The notes under the pieces are model-generated. The model was not told the DNA's origin, ran no database searches, and was given only the letters and a program-made list of their open reading frames with translations. A program made the translations under genes and the position numbers. Positions 731 through 24,659 of a DNA stretch of 44,854 nt are shown here, one piece after another. Source of the stretch: Thermoplasmata archaeon (GTDB lineage: Archaea > Thermoplasmatota > Thermoplasmata > Lutacidiplasmatales > UBA184); the NCBI GenBank assembly GCA_022749845.1, contig JAKIWX010000003.1:1-44854 (forward strand). Reading direction: 5' to 3'. Positions within the stretch are counted from its first letter, which is position 1; each line of letters opens with the position of its first letter.

Positions 731-2485
731 ATGCCGGAGATCTTAGTCCGGGCCGGTGGCCAAGCGGGGGACGGCATCGCGAGCATCGGAGAGACGCTCG
801 CGAAGTCGTTCGCGCGGATGGGCCTGCATCTGTTCGGACTCAACGCCTACCAGTCGGTGATCCGCGGAGGGCACGTCTGGTTCCAGGCTCGGGCTTCGCC
901 CGAGCGCGTGTACTCTCAGGGCGACGGGTGCGACGTGCTCTACGCGCTCGACGCCAACACGGCCGAAGTGCACCTTCCGACGCTGCGGCAAGGAGGCGTC
1001 GTCGTCTACGACCCGGAGAAGTTCAAGATCGACCCCGCCCGGATCCCGGTGGGGGCCACGGCGCTCGAGGTACCGACCCTTGCGCTCGCCCGGAAGTACA
1101 CCCCCCAGTCGATCCTGCAGAACGCTGCGGGGATGGGGGCGTTGGCCTACCTGTCCGGGATTCCGCTTCCCCTCTTTCAGCAGGCGATCTCCGACTCCTT
1201 CGGGAGAAAGAAGGGGGAGGTCGTCGACTGGAACGTCCAGTGCGCCGCGGACGGCTACGCCCACGCCAAAGCGAACGGTTCGCCGAACCTGCACGCCGCG
1301 AGCCCTGCTGGCGAGCCGAAGCTCCTGATGACCGGCAACCAGGCGATCGCTCTCGGAGCGGCCGCGGCCGGCTGCAAGTTCCTCGCCCAGTACCCGATGA
1401 CGCCAGCCTCGACGATCATGCACTGGATGGCGGCCCACTCGCGGGAGGCGGGGGTGGTCGTGAAGCAGGCCGAGGACGAGCTCGCCGCGATCCACATGGC
1501 GATCGGCGCCTCCTACGGCGGCGTGCGCGCGATGACGGCGACGAGCGGCGGCGGCTTTTCCCTCATGGTCGAGGCGCTCGGCATGGCCGGGATGTGCGAG
1601 ATCCCCCTCGTCGTCGTGGAGTCGCAGCGCGCCGGCCCGTCGACGGGCCTGCCGACCAAGACCGAGCAAGGCGACCTGGCACTCATGCTGGGTGCGGGCC
1701 AGGGGGAGTTTCCCCGGGCGATCCTCGCGCCCTCCCATCCTGTCGAAGCCTACCACGCCGCGATCCAGGCGTTCGCCCTCGCCGAGGCGTGGCAGACACC
1801 GGTGCTCCTCGCGAGCGACCTCCACCTCTCGGAGAGCTACGCGACGGTGGACCGCTCCGAGATCGACCTCAACGTGCCGGTCCCTTCGCTCTACCTGAAT
1901 CCCACCAACGGTAGCGCCGGTGAGTACCTCCGCTACCGCTACACCGAGACCGGGGTCTCGCCCCGCTCCCTCCCGGGGCAGCGCGGGCTCCAGTGGATCG
2001 CCGCCTCCGACGAGCACGACGAGAAAGGTCACCTCATCTCGGACGTACGCTCGGGCATCCCGCTCTGGGTCGAGGAGCGCTCGAAGATGATGCGCAAGCG
2101 GATGCACAAGCTCGAGGGTCTCGCCCTCGACTCGGCGCCCCCGGTGCGAGAAGGTCCGGAGGCGGCCGACCTCACGTTCGTCGCCTGGGGCTCGACGATC
2201 GGGGCGGTCCGGGACGCTCGGGAGATTCTCCGCGGGAAGGGCAAGGCGACGAACCTCGTCCATTTCCCGACGGTCTATCCGGTGCACGTCCCGCAGACCC
2301 TCGCGCTGCTCGAGCCGGCGAAGCGGACCCTGCTCGTCGAAGCGAACTACTCGGGCCAGCTGGGCCGGCTCCTGCGGACCGAAACGGGACTGGTCTTCCC
2401 CAACCGCCTGCTGAAGTACGACGGCGAGCCGTTCTATCCGATGGAGATCGTCGCCCGCGCCCTCGAGGTGCTCCGTGGCGGATAG
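731..2485 (+). CDS. korA: 2-oxoacid:ferredoxin oxidoreductase alpha subunit (gamma-alpha fusion type); substrate not determinable
   Basis: GGQAGDGIASIG, QSVIRGGH, YPMTPAS, QAEDELAA, TATSGGGF, QRAGPSTGLPT, SDEHDE, KYDGEPF. Confidence 0.96.
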   Translation: MPEILVRAGGQAGDGIASIGETLAKSFARMGLHLFGLNAYQSVIRGGHVWFQARASPERVYSQGDGCDVLYALDANTAEVHLPTLRQGGVVVYDPEKFKIDPARIPVGATALEVPTLALARKYTPQSILQNAAGMGALAYLSGIPLPLFQQAISDSFGRKKGEVVDWNVQCAADGYAHAKANGSPNLHAASPAGEPKLLMTGNQAIALGAAAAGCKFLAQYPMTPASTIMHWMAAHSREAGVVVKQAEDELAAIHMAIGASYGGVRAMTATSGGGFSLMVEALGMAGMCEIPLVVVESQRAGPSTGLPTKTEQGDLALMLGAGQGEFPRAILAPSHPVEAYHAAIQAFALAEAWQTPVLLASDLHLSESYATVDRSEIDLNVPVPSLYLNPTNGSAGEYLRYRYTETGVSPRSLPGQRGLQWIAASDEHDEKGHLISDVRSGIPLWVEERSKMMRKRMHKLEGLALDSAPPVREGPEAADLTFVAWGSTIGAVRDAREILRGKGKATNLVHFPTVYPVHVPQTLALLEPAKRTLLVEANYSGQLGRLLRTETGLVFPNRLLKYDGEPFYPMEIVARALEVLRGG

Positions 2486-3374
2486 CGCGAGCGCGACGGT
2501 CGCGCCGACCGGCCCTCCGCTCCGGATGGTGGTGGGCAAGTCGGACGTCAAGCCCACCTGGTGTCCCGGGTGCGGCGACTACGGGGTGATCGCGGCCGTC
2601 GAGATGTCGCTCAAGAAGCTCCAGATCCCCGTCGAGGAGGTCGTCCTCGTGAGCGGGATCGGCTGCTCCTCCAACCTGCCCCACTTCCTCAACTCGTACG
2701 GATTCCACGGCATCCACGGCCGGAGCATCCCTGTCGCCGAGGGGATCCGCTGGGCGAACCACGGCCTCCACGTAATCGTGACGGGAGGGGACGGCGACGG
2801 CTTCGGCATTGGCGCCGGACATTTCATCCACGCGATGCGAAGGAACGTGAAGCTCACCTACATCGTGATGGACAACCAGATCTACGGCCTGACCACGGGC
2901 CAAGCCTCCCCCACCTCGATGATGGGGCACAAGACGAAATCCACCCCCGACGGGGTCATCGAGAATCCCATCGACCCGATCGCGCTCGCTCTCGCGGCCG
3001 GCGCCACGTACGTCGCGCGCGGCTTCTCGGGCGATGTGAAGCACATGGCGGAGCTCGTGGCCAACGGCATCCAGCACAAGGGGTTCGCGTTCATCGACGC
3101 GCTGAGCCCGTGCGTCACCTACAACAAGCTCAACACGTTCGACTGGTTCCGGCAGCGGATCTACAAGCTCGAGAGCGCCGGCCACGACCCGAGCAACCTC
3201 GGCAAGGCCTACGAGCGTTCGCTCGAGTGGGGGGAGAAGATCCCCATCGGGCTGTTCTACCGCGCCGAGCGGCCCACCTACGAGGATCTCGAGGAGGTCC
3301 TCGAGGCCGGTCCCCTCGCGAAGCAGCCGGCCGGCATCGCCGGAAAGGAAACCCTCCTCGACGACTTCCGCTAG
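2475..3374 (+). CDS. korB: 2-oxoacid:ferredoxin oxidoreductase beta subunit (TPP and 4Fe-4S binding)
   Basis: WCPGCGDYG, SGIGCS, HGR, GDGD...N TPP motif, SPCVTYN. GTG start preceded by GAGGTG, overlapping korA. Confidence 0.96.
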   Translation: MADSASATVAPTGPPLRMVVGKSDVKPTWCPGCGDYGVIAAVEMSLKKLQIPVEEVVLVSGIGCSSNLPHFLNSYGFHGIHGRSIPVAEGIRWANHGLHVIVTGGDGDGFGIGAGHFIHAMRRNVKLTYIVMDNQIYGLTTGQASPTSMMGHKTKSTPDGVIENPIDPIALALAAGATYVARGFSGDVKHMAELVANGIQHKGFAFIDALSPCVTYNKLNTFDWFRQRIYKLESAGHDPSNLGKAYERSLEWGEKIPIGLFYRAERPTYEDLEEVLEAGPLAKQPAGIAGKETLLDDFR

Positions 3375-3388
3375 GCTAGCGGCCCACA

Positions 3389-5434
3389 CTATCCCGGCCC
3401 GGGGGAGCTCACCCCGAACAGGTAGGCGTCTCCCGTGGCGAAGAGGACAGGGAATCCCGCCGGGTCGGCGAGCAGCGGAACGGGAGAGTACGCCGCCCAG
3501 AGTTCCGTGTTCCTCCCGGTCACCACCACGTAGTCGACGGCGAGTGCCGAGAGCGCTGTTCGGCCGGTGGAGTCGAGCGTTCCGGCGTCGAGTTGCATCG
3601 TAAGAAGAGAGTACGACCGATTTCCGGCGACGGGTATCTCGGGGAAGAGGAGGGTGAGGTCGGGTCGGTATCCGGGGAGGAATTGGCCCGCGCTGCCCGG
3701 GGCGACGAGCACCCGGGCCCCGTGCGGGAGGTTCGTCTCCGCCCAGGCGAGGAGGGCGAAGTCCGCTTCCGTCGTGTTTCCGAAACTCAGGTAGATCCCG
3801 TGGAGGTAGTCCGGTGCATTCGTCGCGGTCACCACTACCCCGGGTACGAGCAGCGCCGCCACAGCGAGGCTCGCCAGGATCGCCGTGCCCGCGCGCGAGT
3901 CGATCCGCCGGCGGCTCCGGATCGTAGGACCGCTCCTCACCTCGGGATCCGCGTGCGGCGGGCGAGGGCTGAGTGCCTTCGGGATCGAACTTGCGGCTCG
4001 GTCAAGAAGCTCGATGAGCGGCACGGCCGCGATGGCCGCGTAGACGGTGAAGAGCAGCATCGACGCTTCGCCTGCGCTTGTGAGATCGCCCACGAACGCT
4101 GGATCCGGGCCACCACGTGCCTCGAGTACCAGCAGCAGCGCCGTCGCGAGCAGCATGGCCGGGGCGAATCTTGCGAGCGCGCCATACCCAGGAGACCCCC
4201 CTTCACGCCGGAGGAGGAAGAGCAGCCCGAGCCCCACGACGAGAAGCGCCGCTAGCTCTGCGCGAAGGACCGGGAACGGCGAGAGCCAAAGGTCTGCGTG
4301 ACCGAAGAGAAGCGGGTCGAGATACCCGACGATTTGCCCCGAAGACAGGCCGACCACGCTCCCGGAAGGGAGTGCCGTCGCGCCGGGCAGGAGACTCGCG
4401 TTCGCCCGGCCGGCCCACAGCACCGAGAGGCTCGGCAGGACGAAGAGGAGCCCAACGCCCAACGCCGTCGCCCACCGTCCGAGCCAGCGCTTCCATCCGG
4501 GCCAGCGGAGACCCGCCGTGAACAGTAGCAGCAGTGGCGCGACGACGAACCAGAGCTCCGAACCGGTCGGATTGAGGGCTGCCGCGTACCCCGCGACCGC
4601 CCCGAAGGCGACCGCGTCGGCCAACCCCGGCGGCTCCTTCGCGCTCCACCGAGGGGTCCAGGCCCACAGGAGCAGGACGAGGGGGAAGGCGAGGGCGAAG
4701 TCGTTGCTTCCCGAGGCGAGCAGCCGTGTCCACGTTGCGAGGAGCGCGGCCACGAGGGCGAGGGCGACCGCGGCTCGACGGTTGCCCCACCAGCGCTCCC
4801 CCCAGACGTAGGCGGCGACCGGAGCGAGCGCGAGAAACAGGGGGGTGAGCAACAGCGCGGTTCGGGCAGGAGGCACGCCGAACAGCCACTGCGTGGGCAG
4901 GAGCCACGCCGTGGTCCCCTGCGGATACGCGATCCCCTGCGCGGCGACCGGGAGGAAGGAGGTCGGCAGTTGGTGGTGCAGATTCGCGAGACCGACGAAC
5001 GTGGCGAGAATGCCGGAGTCGAAGGTGTTGCCGGTGGGCACCGTTGCGACGGCCCCCACTTCGAGTGCGAACAGGCCGAGCGTGAGCAGCAAGAGGAGGA
5101 GGACCGGGGGGCTCCAGAGTGCGCGAAGGGAGACCGAAGGGTCCGAACGCACTGGGCCGCGGAGGAGCCGGTGGAGCACGAGGAGCGGAATCCCAGCGAC
5201 GAGGAGTCCGACCGAAACGGCTCCCGATTCGAGGGGCAGCCAGCCGAAGACGTAGCAGGCCCCTCCCGCCAGGTACAGATCGAGGAGACCCCGTTCTACG
5301 AGGGAGCCCGACCGGAACAGCCCGGCGTACGGTGCCACCAAGCGGCGCAGCAGCTCGCCGAGCGGGAGACAGAGCGCCGCGAAGGCGAGCAGCTCGAGCC
5401 CCCACAGGGGTCCGCCCGGCCCGGGCACTCCCAC
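3389..5434 (-). CDS. Polytopic membrane protein, GT-C-fold glycosyltransferase-like (DUF6541-like), 681 aa
   Basis: Many TM segments. The first large loop (PTGNTFDSG...YPQG) fits the GT-C pattern, and there is a soluble C-terminal domain (DFALLAWAETNLP...VDYVVV). Divergent from a flippase. Confidence 0.55.
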   Translation of the reverse strand: MGVPGPGGPLWGLELLAFAALCLPLGELLRRLVAPYAGLFRSGSLVERGLLDLYLAGGACYVFGWLPLESGAVSVGLLVAGIPLLVLHRLLRGPVRSDPSVSLRALWSPPVLLLLLLTLGLFALEVGAVATVPTGNTFDSGILATFVGLANLHHQLPTSFLPVAAQGIAYPQGTTAWLLPTQWLFGVPPARTALLLTPLFLALAPVAAYVWGERWWGNRRAAVALALVAALLATWTRLLASGSNDFALAFPLVLLLWAWTPRWSAKEPPGLADAVAFGAVAGYAAALNPTGSELWFVVAPLLLLFTAGLRWPGWKRWLGRWATALGVGLLFVLPSLSVLWAGRANASLLPGATALPSGSVVGLSSGQIVGYLDPLLFGHADLWLSPFPVLRAELAALLVVGLGLLFLLRREGGSPGYGALARFAPAMLLATALLLVLEARGGPDPAFVGDLTSAGEASMLLFTVYAAIAAVPLIELLDRAASSIPKALSPRPPHADPEVRSGPTIRSRRRIDSRAGTAILASLAVAALLVPGVVVTATNAPDYLHGIYLSFGNTTEADFALLAWAETNLPHGARVLVAPGSAGQFLPGYRPDLTLLFPEIPVAGNRSYSLLTMQLDAGTLDSTGRTALSALAVDYVVVTGRNTELWAAYSPVPLLADPAGFPVLFATGDAYLFGVSSPGPG

Positions 5435-5524
5435 GTCCCCCCCACGCGCCCCGGGCTATACGGGCTCGCCGAGGTTCCCCACCTTCTATAGGTAGCTGGG
5501 AGTAACCGTCGGAGCGAGCGCAGC

Positions 5525-7084
5525 GTGGCCCAGGGAAGTTCGGAGGCAAGGGAGGCCCTCGGGTCGGTTACGCGAGGAACCTTCCTCCTGTTGGTGGCCA
5601 CGCTCGGATGGGTCACCTTCAACTTCGTCGCCCGCGTGCTCGTCGTCCGGGAGCTCTCGACCACCGAGTGGGGGGAGTTCTACTACGCAATCTCCTTCAC
5701 GGGCCTCCTCGCTGCGCTCGGCAACCTCGGGATCCCCCAAGCGGTCGCGCGAAGCATCCCGTTCGTCCGGGAGGACTCGGAGCGCCGAGGGATCATCCGG
5801 GCCGGCTTCCTCCTCCTCGTTCCCGCGTCCCTGGTCGTCGGGGTCTTCCTCGTCCTCACCTCCTCCCCCTTCGGGCGCCTCTTCGGCGGCTCGATGTTCG
5901 GGTTCGCCCTCGAGTTGTTCTCCGTCGCGGTTGCGTCCTCGATCATCGCCTCTGGGATCGCGGCGGTGTTCCAGGGATTCGAGGACGTCCGCGCGAACGC
6001 CTACTTCATCCAGATCCTGAACCCGGTCCTGTTCATCGCCTTCCTGCTCGGCTTCGGCGCCGCGCGGGGACTCCTCACCTTCCGGACGGCGGTCTTCGCC
6101 TACGTACTGTCGAACGTCGCGATGCTCCTCGGGCTCGTCGCGTACTACTTCTACCGGATCCCCCGCGCCCTTCCGCGCGGGCCCGCAGCGCACGGGGTTG
6201 GGTCGCGCCTGCGCGCCTTCGCCCTGCCCCTGTTCGCGGTCTCGCTCCTCTCCTACGTCGCAAACACGGGGGACACGCTCTTTCTCGGCTACTTTCACCC
6301 GCTTGCGGTGGGAGAGTATGGGGTGTCGATTGCGCTCTCTCGGCTCCTCCTCGTGGGCATCGGTTCGCTTGGGTACATCCTGCTGCCGGTGATGGTGCGC
6401 TTCGCGCGCTCCGGAGACTCCGACGGCGCGGCGCTCACCTACGGCACCGCCACGAAATGGATGGTCCTTGCCTCGCTTCCGCCCTTTCTCGTCTTCTTCT
6501 TCCTCCCGGGGCTCTCGTTGCGGTTCGTTTACGGTTCGGGCTACGGTGTCACGGTCGAACCGCTGCGGATCCTGTGCGTCGGTGCGCTCTTCGCGACCCT
6601 GGTGGGTCCAGCAACCTCCGCCCAGGTCTCCTACGGCGAGACGCACGCCCTGCTGTATAACACACTGATTGCCGCGGTGGTGAACGTGCTCCTCGCTATC
6701 TGGCTCATCCCGCCGTACGGCCAGACGGGGGCCGCGATCGCCTGGGCGGTGGCGACCGCCCTCGTCCCGTTCCTCTCCGCGACGCAGCTCGCGCTCGGCC
6801 ACTCGGTGCACGCCTTCCAGCGGCACTATCTCGTCCCGCTCCTCCTCACCTCGATCCCGCTCGGTCTGGCGTACGCGCTTCTTCCTCAGAGTCTGCCCCT
6901 CCTCGTGCTCCCTGTACTCGTCGCGGGGGTGGCCGTCGTGTTCCTCCTCGCCGTGCTCCTCTCGGGGTCGATCGACCGCGGGGACCGGGTGCTGCTAGGC
7001 GAGCTCGAGCGGCTCCTAGGGCGGAAGCTCCCGGGGGTCCGCTGGCTGTACGGGCACTTCGGCAACCGGCGAGCTACGCGCTAG
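5525..7084 (+). CDS. Oligosaccharide/polysaccharide flippase (Wzx/RfbX, MOP superfamily)
   Basis: About 14 TM helices. ELSTTEWGEFYYAISF..LGNLGIPQAVAR, DTLFLGYF...VGEYGV, VNVLLAIWLIPPYGQTGAAIA. Confidence 0.88.
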   Translation: MAQGSSEAREALGSVTRGTFLLLVATLGWVTFNFVARVLVVRELSTTEWGEFYYAISFTGLLAALGNLGIPQAVARSIPFVREDSERRGIIRAGFLLLVPASLVVGVFLVLTSSPFGRLFGGSMFGFALELFSVAVASSIIASGIAAVFQGFEDVRANAYFIQILNPVLFIAFLLGFGAARGLLTFRTAVFAYVLSNVAMLLGLVAYYFYRIPRALPRGPAAHGVGSRLRAFALPLFAVSLLSYVANTGDTLFLGYFHPLAVGEYGVSIALSRLLLVGIGSLGYILLPVMVRFARSGDSDGAALTYGTATKWMVLASLPPFLVFFFLPGLSLRFVYGSGYGVTVEPLRILCVGALFATLVGPATSAQVSYGETHALLYNTLIAAVVNVLLAIWLIPPYGQTGAAIAWAVATALVPFLSATQLALGHSVHAFQRHYLVPLLLTSIPLGLAYALLPQSLPLLVLPVLVAGVAVVFLLAVLLSGSIDRGDRVLLGELERLLGRKLPGVRWLYGHFGNRRATR

Positions 7085-16010: not shown

Positions 16011-18488
16011 CTAGGACCCGGAGAACGCGTCGAGGGTCGTCGACTTGCGCTTGCGCCCCGCGGGGGCGTTCAACTCGCTGAGCGAGGAATCGAGCCCGAG
16101 ATCGGCACGGGGATCCGGACGAGCGGGTTCCGCCTCGCCGAACCGCTGCTGTCGGCCGCCCTTGAGGAGCGCCGAGGCGTCCCAGTCGAACACCTCCGTC
16201 ACGCGCGCGAGGGTCTGGGCGAGCCGCTCCGCGTAGTAGGTGTAGTCCGGCGGTTTGGTGAGGGCTCGTCCTACCACCCACGGCTCGACCTGCTGGGGGG
16301 TGCGGCTCGCGTCCGTGACGAGCCAGGCGACCTTCATCCCCGGGATCACGTCGTACCCCTCGCTCTGCAGCTGACGGAAGACGCGTAGGAACGGGAGCGC
16401 ATCCTTCGTGGCCTCGTTGTACTCGGACTCCGCACGCACGCTCCGCGCGACGACGAGCCGCTCGGGGGCGACGCGCCCCTCCCGGAGCTCCGCCACCCGC
16501 TCCCGGGCTCGGGTCAGCGCCCGCTGCGTGTCTCCCTGGAGGACGAGCTCGAACAGCTCGTTCAGCGACTCGACCTGGTAGTCGAAGGCGTCCGTCCGGC
16601 GGCTTTCGTAGCCGCGGACGACGAGCTCGGAACGGGGCCACGCCGTGCGTCCGACGTACCGCTTCTTCGCCCCGTGGGAGAACAGCGATTCGTACACCGA
16701 CTGGAACTCGAGGCTCGCCCCTTTCGCGCTGAACCGTCGGGAGAGCGTCTGACCGAACTCCATCGCCCCCTCGAGCGTAGGGGTCGGGGAGCGGACGAAC
16801 ACCGAATCGGTGTCGGAGTAGACCACCTCGATGTGGTCCTCCTCGAGCTCGCGTATGACCGTGGTGATGGCGTCCCGCGCGAAGGAGGTGATCGCCGCGC
16901 CGATGTCCTTGTTCGTGAACCGGTAGAAGCTCGAGGCGAGCACGCCGTAGAAGGAGTTCATCAGCACCTTCACGGCGGCCTGGAGCCCGTCGTAGTAGGC
17001 GCGCAGCTCCGGGGTCGCCTCCTCCTGCGCGCGCCGCCGGAACTCGTCCCGGTGGCGCATCAGGTCCTCGAGGAGCTCGGGGATTACCCCGCGCATCGTC
17101 TCCGGCGGGAGGAACTTCGCCCCGGAGGGGCTCACCGTCGTCCCTTCCGTGGAAAGGGTCGTGAAGCACAGATTCTTCGCGATGATGATCGACGGGTACA
17201 TCGCCTTGAAGTCGAGCACGACGACCCAGTGGTAGAGGCCGGGCCGGATCGTGTGGACGTAGCCGCCCTCGATCGGAGCCTCCCGGTTCACCCTCCGGCT
17301 CGGCGGGACGCCGATGTGCCGCTCGTCCGCCCGCGGGATGAGGAGCGCATCGATGAACAGCGAGGTCCGGCCGTTCAGCCCCTCCTCAAGCGGCAGGTGG
17401 GCCACGGTCGCGAGGTCCGCGGCCTTGTCCATCGAGCGAAGGCGGAGCAGGATGTGCAGCGCGAGGCGTGCGTCGTGCGTGCAGTAGGTCATCACCGCCT
17501 CCGGGTCCTTCGCCCACTCCGCCTCGATGTTCCGGCGGTCGACGTCGAGCTTCTTGTCGCCGAGCAGGGTCCGGGCCACGTACTCGAGGCTCTCCTGCTT
17601 CGGCCGGAGCTCGCGCCGTGCCGACCACCAGGCGTCGGCCACGACGCGGCCGTGGATCCTCCAGAGGCGCTCGCCCGCGTCCCCGGGAGCGGTACGGTCC
17701 CTGCCGAGGAGCAGCTCGGGGAGGCCGAGCGCCGCCTGGCGCTCGAGCAGGAGCGGGAAGTCGTAGCCCCCGATGTTGTAACCCGTGATCACGTCGGGGT
17801 CTTCCTTCTCGACCACCCGGACGAACCCCTCGAGGATCTCCCGTTCGCTCCCATGAAGGCGGAACTCGCGCTCGTTCGCGACCTCCGACTCTCCGGAGGT
17901 GCGGCTCACGACGCCGCACAAGGTGAACAGGGTCCGCGCTCGGATCGCGTTCTCGATGTCGAAGCTCAGGTAGGTGAGGGGCGGCCGGAACGGCTCGACT
18001 CGTTCGAGACGGGCCTCCCCCTTCGGTAACACCCGGAGCACCTGGGCTACCGTGTACCGGTTCCGCTCCTCCTCGGTCGCGTCCTCGGCCTCGAAGCCGA
18101 TCGTGAGTCCGAGGTGGCGGTCGTAGATGAACCGATGAACGAACGGGATATCGCAGGCGAGCACGGAGTTCTCCTCCCCGCTCCGATGGTACCGCTCGCG
18201 GAGCTGCGGCACCACCCACGGGTGATGCAGGCGAACCGTCGCGACCGGCCGGTACGTCCCTTTCACCCAGAGCGGCGGCCCCGAATCGATGCTCACGACC
18301 TCCGGCTCGGCGCGAAGCCGCGCGAGCTGGTCGGCGTTCGGCTCGGTGAGCTCGAAGTACGGTCGGAATCCACTCGCGAGCGCGACCACGCTCTCGCCCT
18401 CCGGAGTCTTGCCGTAGAGCTCAAGCACGACGCCGTCCCCCTCGGAGCGGTACGAACCCCCGAGGAGGAAGAGCGAATACCGGGTCAC
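16011..18488 (-). CDS. polB: Family B DNA polymerase with proofreading exonuclease; no intein
   Basis: SFDIE, GYNIGGYDFP, LDFKAMYPSII, KVLMNSFYG, YSDTDS, KKRYVG. N-terminal FRPYF, HPWVVP and DIPF resemble the uracil-sensing pocket. Confidence 0.97.
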   Translation of the reverse strand: MTRYSLFLLGGSYRSEGDGVVLELYGKTPEGESVVALASGFRPYFELTEPNADQLARLRAEPEVVSIDSGPPLWVKGTYRPVATVRLHHPWVVPQLRERYHRSGEENSVLACDIPFVHRFIYDRHLGLTIGFEAEDATEEERNRYTVAQVLRVLPKGEARLERVEPFRPPLTYLSFDIENAIRARTLFTLCGVVSRTSGESEVANEREFRLHGSEREILEGFVRVVEKEDPDVITGYNIGGYDFPLLLERQAALGLPELLLGRDRTAPGDAGERLWRIHGRVVADAWWSARRELRPKQESLEYVARTLLGDKKLDVDRRNIEAEWAKDPEAVMTYCTHDARLALHILLRLRSMDKAADLATVAHLPLEEGLNGRTSLFIDALLIPRADERHIGVPPSRRVNREAPIEGGYVHTIRPGLYHWVVVLDFKAMYPSIIIAKNLCFTTLSTEGTTVSPSGAKFLPPETMRGVIPELLEDLMRHRDEFRRRAQEEATPELRAYYDGLQAAVKVLMNSFYGVLASSFYRFTNKDIGAAITSFARDAITTVIRELEEDHIEVVYSDTDSVFVRSPTPTLEGAMEFGQTLSRRFSAKGASLEFQSVYESLFSHGAKKRYVGRTAWPRSELVVRGYESRRTDAFDYQVESLNELFELVLQGDTQRALTRARERVAELREGRVAPERLVVARSVRAESEYNEATKDALPFLRVFRQLQSEGYDVIPGMKVAWLVTDASRTPQQVEPWVVGRALTKPPDYTYYAERLAQTLARVTEVFDWDASALLKGGRQQRFGEAEPARPDPRADLGLDSSLSELNAPAGRKRKSTTLDAFSGS

Positions 18489-18670: not shown

Positions 18671-19105
18671 ATGCCACCCCCTTCTGGAATGAACACCGCT
18701 GGCCGCCTGCAGCAGCTCCGCCAGCGACGGCGCTGGTCGGACCGGTACTACAAGCGGCGGACCCTCCACCTCAAGGAGCGTTCGGACCCTCTCGAGGGCG
18801 CGCCCCAGGCCCGGGGCATCGTGATCGAGAAGGTCGGGGTCGAAGCGAAGCAGCCCAACTCGGCCATCCGCAAGTGCATCAAAGTCCAGCTCATCAAGAA
18901 CGGCCGGCAGGTGACCGCGTTCGCGGTCGGCGACGGGGCGATCAACTTCATTGACGAGCACGACGAGGTGCTCGTCGAGGGGATCGGCGGGAGAATGGGC
19001 CGCTCGTACGGCGACATTCCCGGCGTCCGCTACAAGGTGATCCAGGTGAACAGCGTCTCGCTCGACGAGCTCGTGCGGGGACGCAAGGAGAAGCCGCAGC
19101 GATGA
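18671..19105 (+). CDS. rps12: 30S ribosomal protein uS12 (S12P/S23e)
   Basis: [45 protein letters not shown]. Confidence 0.98.
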
Positions 19106-19767
19106 GCCCGCCGACCGAGTTCGTGCCGCCCGCTCCGGAGCCTGCACCCGAGGAGAGCGTCCCTTCCCCGGCCCGTCCTCCCCCTCCGCCACCGCCGCCG
19201 TTCGCGCTCCCCCCGCTCTTCGGGCGGTACAAGTTCGAAGGGGTCGAGGTCCACGACCCGGGGCTCGCGCCCTACCTCTACCTCCACCCGATCTACAGCC
19301 CGCACACCGAGGGGAAGCTCTCGGGCCGACCGTTCCTCAAGGCGCAGATGCACCTCGTGGAACGCCTCGCGAACCACCTGATGAAGGGGGGCAAGTTCAC
19401 GGGGAAGAAGTCGAAGGCGATCACCACCGTGCGCCTCGCCTTCGAAGAGCTCGAGCAGAAGGAGAAGGAGAACCCGCTCCAGCTGCTCGTGAACGCCGTC
19501 GAGAACTCCGCGCCCCGCGAGGAGGTCACCCGGTTGCAGTTCGGCGGGATCTCGGTCCCGCGCGCGGTCGACTCCGCACCGGCGCGGCGGCTCGCCGTCG
19601 CGATCCGCAACCTCGCCCAAGGTGCGATCCAGGCGTCGCGCAAGTCGACGAAGTCGATCTCCTCCTGCCTTGCGACCGAGATCGCGCTCGCCGCGAAGGG
19701 GGACCTCACGAGCTTCGCGGTCGGACGGAAGGAAGAGGTCGAGCGCGTGGCGCAGTCGGCCCGCTAG
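19102..19767 (+). CDS. rps7: 30S ribosomal protein uS7 with Pro-rich N-terminal extension
   Basis: [54 protein letters not shown] overlap with rps12. Confidence 0.97.
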
Positions 19768-19796: not shown

Positions 19797-21998
19797 ATGA
19801 CGCACATCCGTAGCGAGCTCGCGAAAGCGATTCCCGACATGATGCACCGGATCCAGCAGATCCGGAACATCGGGATCGTCGCCCACATTCACCACGGCAA
19901 GACGACCCTCTCCGACAACCTGCTCGCGGCCGCCGGCATGATCTCGACCGAGCTTGCGGGCAAGCAGCTCTACCTGAACTTCGACGAGCAGGAGCAGGCA
20001 CGCCTGCTCACGATCAACAACGCCGACGTCACGATCGTCCACGAGTACGAGAACCAGCAGTATCTGATCAACCTCATCGACACCCCCGGCCACGTCGACT
20101 TCGGCGGCGACGTCACCCGGGCGATGCGGGCGGTCGACGGCGCCGTCGTCGTCGTCTGCGCGGTCGAGGGGGTGATGGCGCAGACGGAGACGGTGCTACG
20201 CCAAGCGCTCCGCGAGAAGGTGAAACCGGTCCTGTTCATCAACAAGGTCGACCGGGCGATCAAGGAGCTCAAACTCACCACGGAGTCGTTCCAGAAGCGG
20301 TTCACCGAGATCATCTCGGAGGTGAACGAGCTCATCCGGAAGATGGCGCCCGAGGAGTTCGTGGACGAGTGGAGCGTCGACCCCCGCGACGGGTCGGTGG
20401 CCTTCGGCAGCGGCTACGAGAACTGGGCGATCTCGGTCCCCTACATGCAGAAGACTGGCGTGAAGTTCAAGGACATTGTCGACTTCGTCTCGACCGGTCG
20501 CTCGCGGGAGATCGCGCAGAAGGCGAAGATCAACGACGTCATTTTCGACATGGTGGTGAAGCACCTGCCGAGCCCCGAGATCGCCCAGCGGTACCGCATC
20601 CCCAACATCTGGAAGGGGGACCCTACGAGCGTCGTCGGCAAGGCGATGACCTCCACGGAGGCGGGCGGCCCGACGGCCTTCATGGTCACCGACATCACGA
20701 TGGACCCGAACGCGGGGGAGATCGCGACGGGCCGACTGTTCTCGGGCCGCCTGGCGAAAGGGATGGAGCTCCAGGTGGTCGGCACGAAGCTCAAGAACCG
20801 CATCCAGCACGTCTCCCTCTTCATGGGCCCCGAGCGGCTGATGGTCGAAGAGGTGACGGCGGGGAACATCGCCGCCGTGATCGGCCTCACCGATGCCTTC
20901 GCGGGTACGACGATGTCGAACGCCCCCGAGATGGTGCCGTTCGAGGAGATCCGCCACGTCTCGGAGCCGGTGGTAACGGTCGCGATCGAGCCGAAGCACA
21001 TGGCCGACCTGCCGAAGCTCATCGAGACGATGCGCAAGGTGGCGAAGGAGGACGCGAGCCTCCGGGTCGAGATCAACCCCGAGACCGGCGAGCACCTCCT
21101 CTCGGGGATGGGGGAGCTCCATCTCGAGATCACCCAGTTCCGGATCATCAACGACTACAAGGTCGAGATCGAGGCGTCGAAGCCGATCGTCGTCTACCGG
21201 GAGACGGTGAAGGGCCCGGGGGGGCCGTTCGAGGGAAAGTCCCCGAACAAGCACAACAAGTTCTACTTCGAGGTGGAGGCGCTCCCCGCCGGGGTCGTCA
21301 CCGCGATCCGGGAGGGGGAGATCCCCCAGGGGAAGTCGTTCAAGGACACGAAGACGCTCGTCACGAAGCTCGAATCGCTCGGCGTCTCGCGCGACGAGGG
21401 GCGGGGCATCGTCGCGGTCGAAGGGACGAACATCCTCTTCGATGTGACCAAGGGCATCCAGTACCTCAACGAGACGATGGACCTCATCGTCGACGCCTTC
21501 AAGGAGGCGATGAACCGCGGACCGCTCGCGAACGAGAAGGTCTACGGCCTCAAGGTCCGCCTCGTCGACGCGAAGCTCCACGAGGACTCGATCCACCGCG
21601 GCCCGGCCCAGACGATCCCCGCCGCCCGCTCGGGCGTCTACGGGGCGATGTGCGTTGCCGGGCGAGTGCTTCTCGAGCCGCTCCAGAAGGTCACCGTGAA
21701 CGTCCCCCAGGAAGTGCTCTCGAACGCCACGCGGGAGCTCCAGCGGCGCCGGGGGGAGATCCAGGACATGACGAGCGTCGGGGACCTGCAGACGATCGTC
21801 GCGAAGACGCCGGTCGCCGAGATGTTCGGGTTCGCCTCCGATATCCGTAGCGCCACCGCCGGGAAGGTGCTGTGGTCCACCGAGTCGATGGGGTTCGAGA
21901 CGCTCCCGACGGAACTGCAGCCCGAAGTGGTGGCCCAGATCCGCCAGCGGCGGGGCCTCAAGCCCGAGCCGTACGACGCGTCGTACTACGCCGGGTGA
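19797..21998 (+). CDS. fusA: Translation elongation factor EF-2 (aEF-2) with atypical G1/G2/G5 motifs
   Basis: DTPGHVDFGGDVTRAMR, NKVD, GMGELHL, EGKSPNKHN, diphthamide loop HEDSIHRGPAQ (His600). Located in the str operon. Confidence 0.97.
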   Translation: MTHIRSELAKAIPDMMHRIQQIRNIGIVAHIHHGKTTLSDNLLAAAGMISTELAGKQLYLNFDEQEQARLLTINNADVTIVHEYENQQYLINLIDTPGHVDFGGDVTRAMRAVDGAVVVVCAVEGVMAQTETVLRQALREKVKPVLFINKVDRAIKELKLTTESFQKRFTEIISEVNELIRKMAPEEFVDEWSVDPRDGSVAFGSGYENWAISVPYMQKTGVKFKDIVDFVSTGRSREIAQKAKINDVIFDMVVKHLPSPEIAQRYRIPNIWKGDPTSVVGKAMTSTEAGGPTAFMVTDITMDPNAGEIATGRLFSGRLAKGMELQVVGTKLKNRIQHVSLFMGPERLMVEEVTAGNIAAVIGLTDAFAGTTMSNAPEMVPFEEIRHVSEPVVTVAIEPKHMADLPKLIETMRKVAKEDASLRVEINPETGEHLLSGMGELHLEITQFRIINDYKVEIEASKPIVVYRETVKGPGGPFEGKSPNKHNKFYFEVEALPAGVVTAIREGEIPQGKSFKDTKTLVTKLESLGVSRDEGRGIVAVEGTNILFDVTKGIQYLNETMDLIVDAFKEAMNRGPLANEKVYGLKVRLVDAKLHEDSIHRGPAQTIPAARSGVYGAMCVAGRVLLEPLQKVTVNVPQEVLSNATRELQRRRGEIQDMTSVGDLQTIVAKTPVAEMFGFASDIRSATAGKVLWSTESMGFETLPTELQPEVVAQIRQRRGLKPEPYDASYYAG

Positions 21999-22561
21999 CG
22001 TCGGGGCCCGAGCGCCCCGTCGAGCGTCCGTTGGGCCCGGTCGGGCGGCCCGTCCACCGTGCCGGACTTGAGCGGCCAGGATCCCTCGTGCTGCAGGAGC
22101 CAGCGCTTGCGCCAGAGCCCGAGGCCGAAGCCGGTGAGGTCCCCGTGCTCGCCCACGACCCGGTGGCAGGGGATCACGATCGGGATCGGGTTCCGTCCGA
22201 CCGCGCCTCCCACGGCGCGGGCGCTCCCCGCGTGCCCGGAGCGCTTGGCGAGCTCCCCGTAGGAGACGGTGGTGCCGGGCGGGATCGCGAAAAGCGACTT
22301 CCACACCTCCTGGTCGAACTTCGTGCCGAGCGGGTCGACGAGCAGGTCGAAGCCCTTTCGTCGGCCGGAGAAATACTCGCGGAGCTGCGCGGGAGGGCTC
22401 CCTGCCGGGAACCGCGCGACGGGGCGCGCGTCCGTCGGAGGGCCGGTCTGCTCGACCCCCCGTTCGAGAAGGTCGACCACCTGGACGGTGCGCTGGTGGT
22501 AGACCACCCGGAACGTCCCGATCACCGTCGGGACGAGGGCGACCTCGGATCCGCTCGCCAC
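21986..22561 (-). CDS. ogt: Methylated-DNA--protein-cysteine methyltransferase (O6-alkylguanine alkyltransferase), 191 aa
   Basis: GTKFDQEVW, IPPGTTVSYGELA, ARAVG, NPIPIVIPCHRVV. GTG 22561 is 22 nt below GTATAAG. Confidence 0.95.
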   Translation of the reverse strand: MASGSEVALVPTVIGTFRVVYHQRTVQVVDLLERGVEQTGPPTDARPVARFPAGSPPAQLREYFSGRRKGFDLLVDPLGTKFDQEVWKSLFAIPPGTTVSYGELAKRSGHAGSARAVGGAVGRNPIPIVIPCHRVVGEHGDLTGFGLGLWRKRWLLQHEGSWPLKSGTVDGPPDRAQRTLDGALGPRRHPA

Positions 22562-22584
22562 GAGCGCCGCATCGGTTTCCCCGC

Positions 22585-23304
22585 TTATACTTCCGTGGGG
22601 TCCCCCGCGACACCGGTCCGTGTGATGCGGAACTCTACCTGTCCCTCGGGGCGGGAGCGGTGCTTCAGGAGCACCGCGCGGCGACGGTCGCCCGCGACGC
22701 GTTCGAGCCGCAGTACCGTCTTCGCCACGTGGAGGAGGAAGGACCCGCCGAGAGGCTCGTTGGCGCCCGTCGTCGCGTTCCGATACACTTGGTTCGTCAG
22801 GAGGACCGGCACCTCCACGTGGAGGGCAGTGCCGAGGAGTTCCGCAAGCTCCCGCAAGAGCTCGGTGCGCGCCTCGTCCTCCTCGGGGGTCCCTAGGGCG
22901 AGCCGGTAGTGGAGCGTGGCGGAATCGAGGACGACGAGGCCGAACGGACGGCTTCCCTCCCGCAGCAGGGCGCATCCCGCCCGCACCGCCTGGCCTTGCT
23001 CCTCGAGGTTGCGGGGCGAGGCCAACAGCCACTTTCGGAGGATCCGCGCGGGGTCGGTTCCGCCCGCCGCGGCCACCCGCTCCGCGGAGACTCCCTCCGT
23101 ATCGACGTACAGGACCCATCTCTCCGCGAGGGCGACACGGACGGCCGCGTCGACGCAGAGGATCGTCTTGCCGGTCCCGCCCTCGCCGTAGAGCATCGTG
23201 AGGCCGTCCGGGTCGTAGCCCCCCCCGAGCAGCCGGTCGAGCGCCGGAATTCCCGTCGAGAGGCGCTCCTGCGGCGCCGTCGGCGGCGCGGTGGGTTCGG
23301 TCAC
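22585..23304 (-). CDS. radB: DNA repair and recombination protein RadB, 239 aa
   Basis: LSTGIPALDRLLGGG, GEGGTGKT, YVDTEG, VVLDS, LLTNQVY and the RadB KHR motif. GTGA overlap with the upstream gene. Confidence 0.93.
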   Translation of the reverse strand: MTEPTAPPTAPQERLSTGIPALDRLLGGGYDPDGLTMLYGEGGTGKTILCVDAAVRVALAERWVLYVDTEGVSAERVAAAGGTDPARILRKWLLASPRNLEEQGQAVRAGCALLREGSRPFGLVVLDSATLHYRLALGTPEEDEARTELLRELAELLGTALHVEVPVLLTNQVYRNATTGANEPLGGSFLLHVAKTVLRLERVAGDRRRAVLLKHRSRPEGQVEFRITRTGVAGDPTEV

Positions 23305-24659
23305 GGCAGTGCCTCCCCCGTGGCCACGAGGTAGGCGACGCCCTTTTCCGGTGGGCAGTAGCGGCCCGGGCCGTGGCGGAACGCCTCGGGATGCTGGGTG
23401 TGGATCGGGAACAGGTTCGTCGCGCTCACCTCTCGACAGACGGCCTCGAGCTCGGGTCCCGAGCAGTGTCCCGAGGCGTGGAACTGGTGAAGCCTCAGGT
23501 CGAAGTGGCCGAGCCAATTCTTGAGCACCGCGTCGTTCACGTCTTCGTCGGAGAACGGCTCGCTCATCGAGCGAACGAACGGGGTGCCGGGCTCGGGGCG
23601 GATGTCGATGAGCTCGGGGAACTGGTACAGGTCGAGCAGCAAGAGGAGCTCCCTGCCGCGCCGGCGCACCTCCTGCGCGCCGATCGCTCCCTCGAGCAGC
23701 GGTCGCTCCCAGGCGAAGAGCTTCTTCTTCGAACGCTCGTAGACGAGGAGGTTCGGGTCGGAGCCCGGCTGGGGGAGCGGCAGCGAGGGATCCCCCTCGA
23801 GCGCCCGCAGGAGGAACGCGGTCTTCGCCGGGACCACGAGGGTCCGGCCCGAGTCCCTCGCCGCCTCGTGGAGCGTTCGGATCCGGTCGACGTCGCGTGG
23901 ATAGCACGAAACGACGGCGAGGCCGGCGGTGGAGGCCAGCAGTTCGTCGAGCGCGCTTCGGACGCCGGCCTCACTCAGGTTCTTGCGGGGGTCCGGACCT
24001 GCCCGCGTACCTTCGATGAGCAGCGCCTTCGGTTCCTCCGCCCTCGCAGCCTCGAGGAAGCTGCGGGTCAGGGGCGCCCGAGGGCCGTGCTCGCGGAAAT
24101 CTCCCGTGTAGACGAGCGTGCCGACGGAGGTACGGACCAGAAAGCCCGTCGCGTACGGGACGCTGTGGTCCACGGGGAACGGGAGGATCTCGAGGTTGCC
24201 GACCTTGACCGGCTTACCAGGTTGCAGGGCCTTCCAGGGGTGCTCGCCGTACTTGAGGGTCGGGCTCGACTTCGAATTCGCCTCGAGTATCTTGCGCGTC
24301 CCCTCGCTCGTGTAGACCGGGATCTCGGGATGAACGAACTTCAGGTATCCGGCGTGGTCGGCGTGCGCGTGGCTCACGAAGACCGCGTGTACGGAAGGCT
24401 CGGTGTACCGCTCCTCGATCCCGCCGAGCGACTCCTTCGAGTAGAGGCCGTCGAGCCACGGCAAGAGCTCGAACTCGAGGAGATCCCGCACCGGACTCGT
24501 CGAGCGCGGCGTGAGGAAGTCGACGTAGAACGACTCGTACCTCGGGTCGAACGCCGGGCCGAAATCGAACAGCACCCGGTCGGGGCCGTCGTCGAGGACG
24601 ATCTTGTTCCCCCCGATCTCGCGCACCCCACCCAGGAAGCGGACGGTGGGTTCGGCCAC
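23301..24659 (-). CDS. rnj: Metallo-beta-lactamase/beta-CASP nuclease, RNase J-like
   Basis: GGVREIGGNKI, LFDFG, SHAHADH, VDHS, YTGDFR, LIEGT, HASGH, PIHT. Confidence 0.82.
   Translation of the reverse strand: MAEPTVRFLGGVREIGGNKIVLDDGPDRVLFDFGPAFDPRYESFYVDFLTPRSTSPVRDLLEFELLPWLDGLYSKESLGGIEERYTEPSVHAVFVSHAHADHAGYLKFVHPEIPVYTSEGTRKILEANSKSSPTLKYGEHPWKALQPGKPVKVGNLEILPFPVDHSVPYATGFLVRTSVGTLVYTGDFREHGPRAPLTRSFLEAARAEEPKALLIEGTRAGPDPRKNLSEAGVRSALDELLASTAGLAVVSCYPRDVDRIRTLHEAARDSGRTLVVPAKTAFLLRALEGDPSLPLPQPGSDPNLLVYERSKKKLFAWERPLLEGAIGAQEVRRRGRELLLLLDLYQFPELIDIRPEPGTPFVRSMSEPFSDEDVNDAVLKNWLGHFDLRLHQFHASGHCSGPELEAVCREVSATNLFPIHTQHPEAFRHGPGRYCPPEKGVAYLVATGEALP

Follow-up and report, generated by a model that had tools for sequence, protein, structure and literature searches.

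At the fourth P-loop position (motif G1), translational GTPases carry an Asp that counts in the literature as a second catalytic residue and as invariant, with eIF2-gamma and EFG II as exceptions. The exact job of this Asp is debated, and binding of a monovalent cation, binding of a second Mg2+ and contact with the sarcin-ricin loop have all been considered. Here we describe the archaeal elongation factor 2 (aEF-2) encoded in a stretch of 44,854 nucleotides from a Thermoplasmata archaeon (assembly GCA_022749845.1, contig JAKIWX010000003.1, positions 1 to 44,854 of the forward strand), referred to below as the window. In this protein, the P-loop Asp was found to be replaced by His together with three changes in switch I, and changes at the same four sites were shown to have at least four independent origins in Archaea.

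For MnEF-2, the predicted monovalent-cation site consists of the Asp31 carboxylate, the Gly69 carbonyl and oxygens of the alpha and gamma phosphates, and Ile70 is packed onto domain III (PMC8244253). A second Mg2+ in aIF2-gamma is bound by D19 and the carbonyl of G44 and coincides, on superposition, with the arginine finger of RasGAP; the D19A substitution costs 8.5-fold (PMC4357699). In EF-Tu, D21A was reported to lower the ribosome-stimulated GTPase activity by ~1000-fold and to abolish stimulation by K+, and in ribosome-bound EF-G the P-loop Asp holds a Mg2+ beside A2662; this Asp was called conserved in all translational GTPases but eIF2-gamma (PMC5084732). Besides, Asp51 in switch I of EF-Tu contacts phosphates and Mg2+ (PMC4329189). 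A survey of translational GTPases (Atkinson 2015, PMC4342817) described EFG II with a P-loop Gly and a switch-I ligand that is not conserved in EFGII, Ria1, Snu114, eEF2 and aIF5B, and reported no aEF-2 variant at the P-loop. Elongation factors are unmentioned in the genome paper on Lutacidiplasmatales (PMC9287336). A first-pass annotation of the window, made from the sequence, had considered that the variant motifs might already be documented as common and neutral; they proved to be common across broad clades, but a literature search on P-loop motif strings found no publication describing a His-type EF-2.

The protein encoded in the window matched the aEF-2 equivalog family TIGR00490 with 1091.2 bits (cut-off 738.45) over profile positions 5-720 of 720. 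All five EF-2 domains scored above cut-off: G (PF00009, GTP_EFTU), II (PF03144/PF22042, D2), III (PF14492, EFG_III), IV (PF03764, EFG_IV) and V (PF00679, EFG_C). The G domain (residues 5-207) aligned gap-free and end to end with the solved aEF-2 structures 6Q2D, 5H7J and 6U45 (E 1e-78 to 1e-89). Canonical aEF-2 proteins (Methanoperedens nitroreducens 6U43/6U45; Pyrococcus horikoshii 5H7J; 6Q2D) share with this protein the TIGR00490 family, the length, the five domains, the Lys and Thr of G1, DTPGH, NKVD and the diphthamide loop. In a Thermoplasmata order of soil archaea, it is the only translocase aEF-2, a housekeeping protein that bears diphthamide.

At the nucleotide site, the differences from the solved aEF-2 proteins in the aligned stretch inspected were D>H in the P-loop, lDfdeqe>lNfdeqe and RGIT>RLLT in switch I, and GSA>GSG in G5 (Table 1). 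By alignment, His32, Asn61, Leu70 and Leu71 correspond to MnEF-2 Asp31, Asp60, Gly69 and Ile70. The published Asp31/Gly69 cation site of the canonical proteins cannot form as described with His32 and Leu70, and both features of the monovalent-cation-site class, an Asp at the fourth P-loop position and a Gly two residues ahead of the switch-I Thr, are replaced. Leu70 is weaker evidence for loss of the site than His32, since a backbone carbonyl is still present at position 70. The G34-K35-T36 of the P-loop, which is invariant in the EF-2 alignment, is present, and the Mg2+ ligands Thr36 and Thr72 are retained.

On re-reading of the open reading frame (ORF), the motifs AHIHHGKT, RLLT and GSG and their coordinates were borne out as the first-pass annotation had given them, and G3 DTPGH, G4 NKVD and the diphthamide His600 were likewise intact. 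A small correction concerns the span 20001-20015, assigned correctly to switch I but written as ARLLTI: it holds RLLTI, and the Ala lies 3 nucleotides upstream. The description of RGIT as near-universal did not hold for the switch-I Gly in the EF-2 family, where eEF2-like representatives showed R[CSA]ITI and some archaeal proteins showed R[QRK][MI]T with a normal P-loop Asp. The list of substitutions also lacked a fourth coupled change, Asp61 to Asn, at a position where Asp was invariant in 48/48 Asp-type EF-2 compared.

Precedents come from other GTPases. Like the EF-2 of the window, eIF2-gamma has both cation ligands replaced (P-loop Asp by Ala and switch-I Gly by Asn) and binds no cation (PMC4342817, PMC4357699). 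It differs in having an external GTPase-activating protein, eIF5, with a proposed arginine finger, and its replacement residue is Ala, whereas EF-2 here combines a potentially cationic His with activation by the ribosome. EFG II, including Thermus thermophilus EF-G-2, belongs to the EF-2 family and has lost the P-loop Asp, with Gly instead, as well as the switch-I Gly (PMC8244253, PMC4342817), but is a second-copy paralogue without the catalytic switch-II His; the EF-2 of the window is the sole copy and has His99. Between dynamin and the MnmE-type K+-dependent GTPases, a coordinated change at the same P-loop position and in the switch-I/K-loop region alters the handling of the activating cation (PMC6310460). 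With dynamin, a cation (Na+ or K+) remains in use, whereas the ligands here are replaced by poor alkali-metal ligands. In GBP1 and atlastin, a P-loop arginine acts in cis, and the charge that comes from a finger or a cation in other GTPases is provided by this basic residue at the fourth P-loop position. These proteins have Arg and not His and are large GTPases activated by dimerisation, and no homology to EF-2 beyond the G fold is implied.

The His P-loop was found in 169 of the 186 species genomes of the order, including all 72 of high quality, and both CAC and CAT were used as codons. In a sample of the class, all 60 genomes of the order had it, as against 0/241 genomes from ~30 other families. 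The families of the order showed His together with RLLT and GSG (family f1), with RQLT and GSA (f2) or with RKLT and GSA (f3), and the nearest families outside the order showed AHIDHGKT, RGIT and GSA. The combination of AHIHHGKT, R-L-L-T and GSG was present in all 120 closest database homologues, which were named 'Thermoplasmata archaeon' and once 'Ca. Lutacidiplasmatales'. From a few such database labels, the order probably corresponds to Lutacidiplasmatales and two sister families. The four-site state was shown to be fixed and under purifying selection in the order. GSG is a minor, family-level variation, and it is the His and switch-I changes that mark the whole order; the G5 change was rejected as part of the convergent set described below, being specific to f1 and with Gly also found there in some Asp-type sequences.

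A multiple alignment of 166 EF-2 sequences divided them into 118 His-type and 48 Asp-type sequences, and Gly70 was present in none of the former and in 43 of the latter. Five Asp-type sequences (P0131, P0137, P0144, P0168 and P0174) showed R[QRK][MI]T and may be intermediates. The alignment was scanned for positions at least 80% conserved in Asp-type sequences yet changed in His clades. Only four columns were changed in every His clade: 32 (D>H), 61 (D>N/W), 70 (G>X) and 71 (I>L/M). Two changes found only in the order, L154A and P420A, were also returned. Residue 61 was Asn in this order and in Micrarchaeota and Trp in the other two His clades. Residue 70 was L, Q, K, R, C or E across the His clades (L/Q/K, R/K, L/C and E/L as sets for the single clades). 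After the switch, positions 32 and 61 were fixed within each clade and position 70 kept varying, a pattern that fits lost constraint on the Gly and gained constraint on the His and the Asn or Trp.

Phylogenetic analysis with FastTree and IQ-TREE (LG+C20) showed the His clade of the order (support 100) to be nested among the Asp-type EF-2 proteins of the class it belongs to (supports 97 and 99), and the three His clades of DPANN were placed elsewhere in the tree, one of them as sister to Asp-type sequences with a support of 99. The tree requires four D/H changes and four changes of residue 61, and the direction was the same in 4/4 independent pairs; the origins were counted on a sample of archaeal EF-2. 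A single His clade was rejected by the approximately unbiased (AU) test (33 rows, LG+G4; delta-lnL 199, p 3.9e-8), for which the trait columns were kept in the alignment, a choice that biases towards monophyly. Horizontal transfer from DPANN was considered as the source of the gene in the order and was ruled out by the nesting of the gene among EF-2 of its own class and by the rejection of a single His clade. A long stem branch (0.22 vs 0.03-0.05 on neighbouring branches) leads to the order, and 26 substitutions were fixed on it, 9 of them in residues 28-80.

A global scan with the exact pattern AH[IVM]HHGKT, covering one genome per prokaryotic species, gave at least 120 loci, and nearly all matches listed were EF-2 of ~730 aa. 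Mapped on the tree as the first-pass annotation had proposed, the His type was found in this order and in several DPANN groups; the groups among the matches listed were this order, Micrarchaeota, Woese/Pace/Nanoarchaeota and the Nanopusillus group. Micrarchaeota showed AHVHHGKT with DR[RK]MT, and Woese/Pace/Nanoarchaeota showed SAHIHHGKTA with ERL[ML]TV. In the group formed by Nanopusillus acidilobi, an Aenigmatarchaeota-labelled record and 'Nanobdellati', switch I read ERE[IM]TV, RELTI or ERLMTI; Nanopusillus showed AHIHHGKT with ERE[IM]TV. The DPANN proteins share with the EF-2 of the window His at 32, the lack of Asp at 61 and of Gly at 70, and mostly Leu or Met at 71. They differ in their independent origins, in the Trp at residue 61 of two DPANN clades and in residue 70, which is R/K, L/C or E. 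In the five DPANN genomes tested, the His type was the sole EF-2-type P-loop, and among 141 genomes sampled evenly across the Nanoarchaeota phylum, 34 P-loops were His and 97 Asp, the His form being the minority there.

Further sequences of the EF-2 family deserve mention. Four loci labelled 'uncultured Methanosarcinales archaeon' (L035, L046, L068 and L086) contain an EF-2 of the Woese/Pacearchaeota His type and branch in that clade; it looks as if the label is wrong or the contigs are mis-binned. A representative of 648 aa (P0201) has an odd P-loop, AHVNHGKT, with KRSITI; Asn is the K+ ligand of MnmE-type GTPases. Many Asp-type archaeal EF-2 contain an insert right after the P-loop Lys. In five 50%-identity cluster representatives of 916-1223 aa (P0121, P0123, P0124, P0125 and P0130), it is ~200-500 aa long and begins with Cys (AHIDHGK|C...), and we read it as an intein in the P-loop.

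The other translational GTPases of the same genome were canonical: aEF1-alpha with GHVDHGKS/RGVTI, aIF5B with GHVDHGKT/GGITQ and aIF2-gamma with GHVDHGKT/RRGISI. Among the four, the change was shown to be confined to EF-2. The 23S rRNA was not found in the assembly itself, and the sarcin-ricin loop was therefore read in relatives, from bona fide 23S rRNA (RF02540). The loop, AGUACGAGAGGAAC, did not differ between relatives covering all three families of the order and an outgroup of the same class with Asp-type EF-2. Co-variation of this loop with EF-2, which the first-pass annotation had proposed to look for, was accordingly not seen between order members and outgroup.

We consider it an even chance that a built-in His32 has taken the place of the cation site, with His99 and the unchanged sarcin-ricin loop still driving hydrolysis. 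On the stem branch of the order, the cation-holding part of the GTPase centre beside GTP would have been rebuilt by four changes: P-loop Asp to His32, switch-I Asp to Asn61, Gly to Leu70 (Gln or Lys in the sister families) and the gate Ile to Leu71. The monovalent-cation or second-Mg2+ site would thereby be lost. The imidazole of His32 would neutralise or hydrogen-bond the alpha and gamma phosphates, or the phosphate of A2662 in the sarcin-ricin loop, directly and with no metal as a bridge. Loss of Asp61 would balance the charge by removing an uncompensated negative charge, position 70 would then be free to vary, and Leu or Met at 71 would re-pack the gate and the contact with domain III. Hydrolysis would still be carried out by His99 as positioned by the sarcin-ricin loop, with Thr36 and Thr72 holding the catalytic Mg2+. 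More tentatively, His-type EF-2 may be a naturally cation-independent translational GTPase, in which the P-loop His would be a built-in 'finger' that replaces the pair of Asp and K+/Mg2+ and touches the GTP phosphates or the A2662 phosphate directly; it would need D61N/W, G70X and I71L/M and would have evolved at least four times in Archaea. The first-pass annotation had suggested a rewired GTPase activation, perhaps related to cations or to acid. This is supported in outline, as the substituted residues are published cation ligands (PMC8244253, PMC4357699) and are fixed in the clade, but the acid-specific part is not, as the same swap is fixed in DPANN lineages with record titles indicating groundwater and other sources.

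Several points weigh against such a role of His32, which we infer from sequence comparison and published structures of other GTPases. Even Asp-type EF-2 and eEF2 vary at the switch-I Gly, so that loss of the Gly alone is no proof that the site is lost. Residue 61 is putatively equivalent to Asp51 of EF-Tu on the basis of spacing, with 8 residues from Asn61 to Arg69 as from Asp51 to Arg59. In the AlphaFold model, the mean confidence score (pLDDT) is 85 and switch I is weak (58-79). The coupling of positions 32 and 61 is not absolute, as a short His-type representative of 623 aa (P0164; AHIHHGKT, LDF..ERQMTI) combines His32 with Asp61. In the paired sign test, four origins gave a p of 0.125, and significance is unreachable at n=4. 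Finally, no stimulation by K+ was seen for ribosome-bound EF-Tu (PMC5084732), and whether the monovalent cation contributes to catalysis on the ribosome is disputed.

As an alternative, the protein could be a paralogue that is neofunctionalised or impaired as a GTPase, with a canonical EF-2 encoded at another place in the genome, or the motifs could result from a sequencing or assembly error. One EF-2 was found in the 1.83-Mb assembly, which is just 88.5% complete, and one in each of 41 relatives searched, where split matches occurred only in fragmented assemblies. The canonical Asp-type P-loop pattern was found in 0/79 near-complete genomes of the order. The catalytic His99 and the diphthamide His600 are intact, and the dph genes that had been proposed as a check are present elsewhere in the genome, with Dph2 (PF01866) at 163 bits and Dph5 (TIGR00522) at 186 bits. 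EFG II or EF-G-2-type paralogues are second copies that have lost the catalytic His, in contrast to this sole copy with His99. The aEF-2 paralogues (aEF-2p) of Asgard/Korarchaeota type are extra copies with a degenerate diphthamide loop, and here the loop of the sole copy is intact. A second EF-2, and with it the neofunctionalisation put forward in the first-pass annotation, is ruled out by these data. Sequencing error is ruled out by the His P-loop state of 169 independent assemblies with varying synonymous codons; that a single such error cannot explain the motifs had been argued from the number of base changes, and the 120 closest homologues agree. Tandem EF-2 pairs do exist in some Nanoarchaeota. 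In one Nanoarchaeota-phylum genome (L168; G542:C16:221500-231500), two EF-2 genes on the minus strand lie 0.8 kb apart (1286-3532 and 4312-6456). Its His-type copy (748 aa; SAHIHHGKTA, ERLMTV) has kept the diphthamide loop HEDAIHRGP, and its Asp-type copy (714 aa; AHIDHGKT, ARGITID) has the degenerate loop VSADAENSPVQ; judged from these loops, the His-type copy looks like the working translocase. Taken together, a paralogue or an error has negligible probability and is refuted for practical purposes. As a separate observation, five genomes of the Nanoarchaeota phylum (G535, G547, G460, G534 and G550) contain two Asp-type EF-2 P-loops, AHVDHGKT and AHIDHGKT, on different contigs, which points to frequent EF-2 paralogy in this phylum.

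Compensated neutral drift would involve no new chemistry: the Asp would matter less in EF-2 than in EF-Tu, and drift in switch I (Gly to X, Ile to Leu or Met) would have made the change of Asp to His tolerable. The five Asp-type sequences with R[QRK][MI]T look like permissive intermediates, position 70 is variable in eEF2, Snu114, Ria1 and aIF5B (PMC4342817), aIF2-gamma loses just 8.5-fold by D19A, and the long stem branch means that many substitutions were fixed together. We nevertheless regard drift as unlikely, although it has to be taken seriously. It does not predict that the same four sites change four times among ~720 columns, and His was chosen at every origin and never Asn, Ser, Ala or Gly. 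His32 is invariant in the 169 motif-bearing genomes of the order despite synonymous codon variation, and in three DPANN clades, and the otherwise invariant Asp61 was also removed at every origin. A titratable His32 could instead let EF-2 activity follow the pH of the cytoplasm and so adapt the cells to strongly acidic surroundings. The His form is present in Nanopusillus acidilobi and in many Micrarchaeota, frequent inhabitants of acid mine drainage and hot springs, and the habitats of Lutacidiplasmatales have a pH below 4.5 (PMC9287336). However, the largest His-type clade (Woese/Pacearchaeota) includes genomes with record titles indicating groundwater and aquifer sources, the His is absent from the 241 genomes of other families of the class, and EF-2 alone is changed among the four translational GTPases, which makes pH tuning improbable. 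The class also contains the acidophiles of the Thermoplasmatales, some of which may be among the 241 sampled genomes. Escape from a toxin or inhibitor aimed at the P-loop Asp or switch I of EF-2, with repeated selection removing the target carboxylates, appears highly improbable. We know of no archaeal toxin aimed at the P-loop Asp of EF-2, aEF1A has the same Asp and is unchanged, many residues would serve but only His is seen, and the changes of the buried Gly and Ile would be left unexplained. Convergent change at exposed, otherwise invariant residues is nevertheless typical of arms races, and the Salmonella type VI secretion effector Tre-Tu ADP-ribosylates the homologous D21 of EF-Tu, with D21A, D21E and D21N left unmodified (PMC9825190).

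The gene order at the locus, as read from the ORFs, is S12-S7-EF-2 (Table 1). The longest S7 ORF begins with a Pro-rich stretch of ~40 aa that overlaps the S12 stop. The true start possibly lies downstream of this stretch, which may be a genuine N-terminal extension or merely an open frame ahead of a later start in a GC-rich genome. Four neighbouring ORFs on the minus strand were assigned by eye. In several of them, the N-terminus is extended by a long Arg/Pro-rich stretch, probably an artefact of the high G+C content.

Table 1. Positions in the window of the aEF-2 gene, its GTPase and diphthamide motifs, and neighbouring genes
Feature	Position	Strand	Remarks
uS12 (ribosomal protein S12) gene	18671..19105	+	First of str-type cluster; S12 signature in ORF translation, read by eye
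uS7 (ribosomal protein S7) gene, longest ORF	19102..19767	+	ORF translation read by eye
aEF-2 gene, 733 aa + stop	19797..21998	+	TIGR00490 match, five Pfam domains; sole EF-2 of genome
G1/P-loop A29-H-I-H32-H-G-K-T36	19881..19904	+	His32 = CAC at 19890-19892, in place of the Asp facing the sarcin-ricin loop and binding the monovalent cation or second Mg2+
Asn61 (AAC), switch I, within conserved L-D-[FY]-D-E block	19977..19979	+	Replaces Asp
Switch I/G2 R69-L-L-T-I73	20001..20015	+	Leu70 for Gly, Leu71 for 'hydrophobic gate' Ile; Thr72 kept
G3 DTPGH (D95-H99)	20079..20093	+	Catalytic His99 intact; invariant in the EF-2 alignment
G4 NKVD	20241..20252	+	Intact
G5 G204-S-G206	20406..20414	+	Ala206 to Gly; family f1 only
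Domain IV tip HEDSIH600RGP	21579..21605	+	Diphthamide His600 intact
Family B DNA polymerase (YSDTDS)	16011..18488	-	Read by eye
Ogt-like methyltransferase (PCHRVV)	21986..23119	-	Read by eye
RadB/KaiC-like P-loop protein	22585..23907	-	Read by eye
Metallo-beta-lactamase/beta-CASP-like protein	23301..24659	-	Read by eye

These results show an essential single-copy translocase with His in place of the P-loop Asp, a replacement that has occurred repeatedly and independently with the same three partner changes and with an unchanged ribosomal activator, the sarcin-ricin loop. The change provides a marker that separates a whole Thermoplasmata order and several DPANN clades, a four-residue covarying unit that is transferable between tractable aEF-2 proteins, and natural proteins for direct measurement of cation and pH dependence. 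If His-type EF-2 is indeed cation-independent, these proteins would be natural mutants with which the contributions of the Asp and the monovalent cation to ribosome-activated GTP hydrolysis could be settled. If the swap is functionally silent, the 'invariant' Asp would be dispensable in EF-2 once switch I is adjusted, which would also be informative. A debated point of GTPase chemistry becomes open to direct experiment in this way, with His-type EF-2 as a natural test of how translational GTPases fire.

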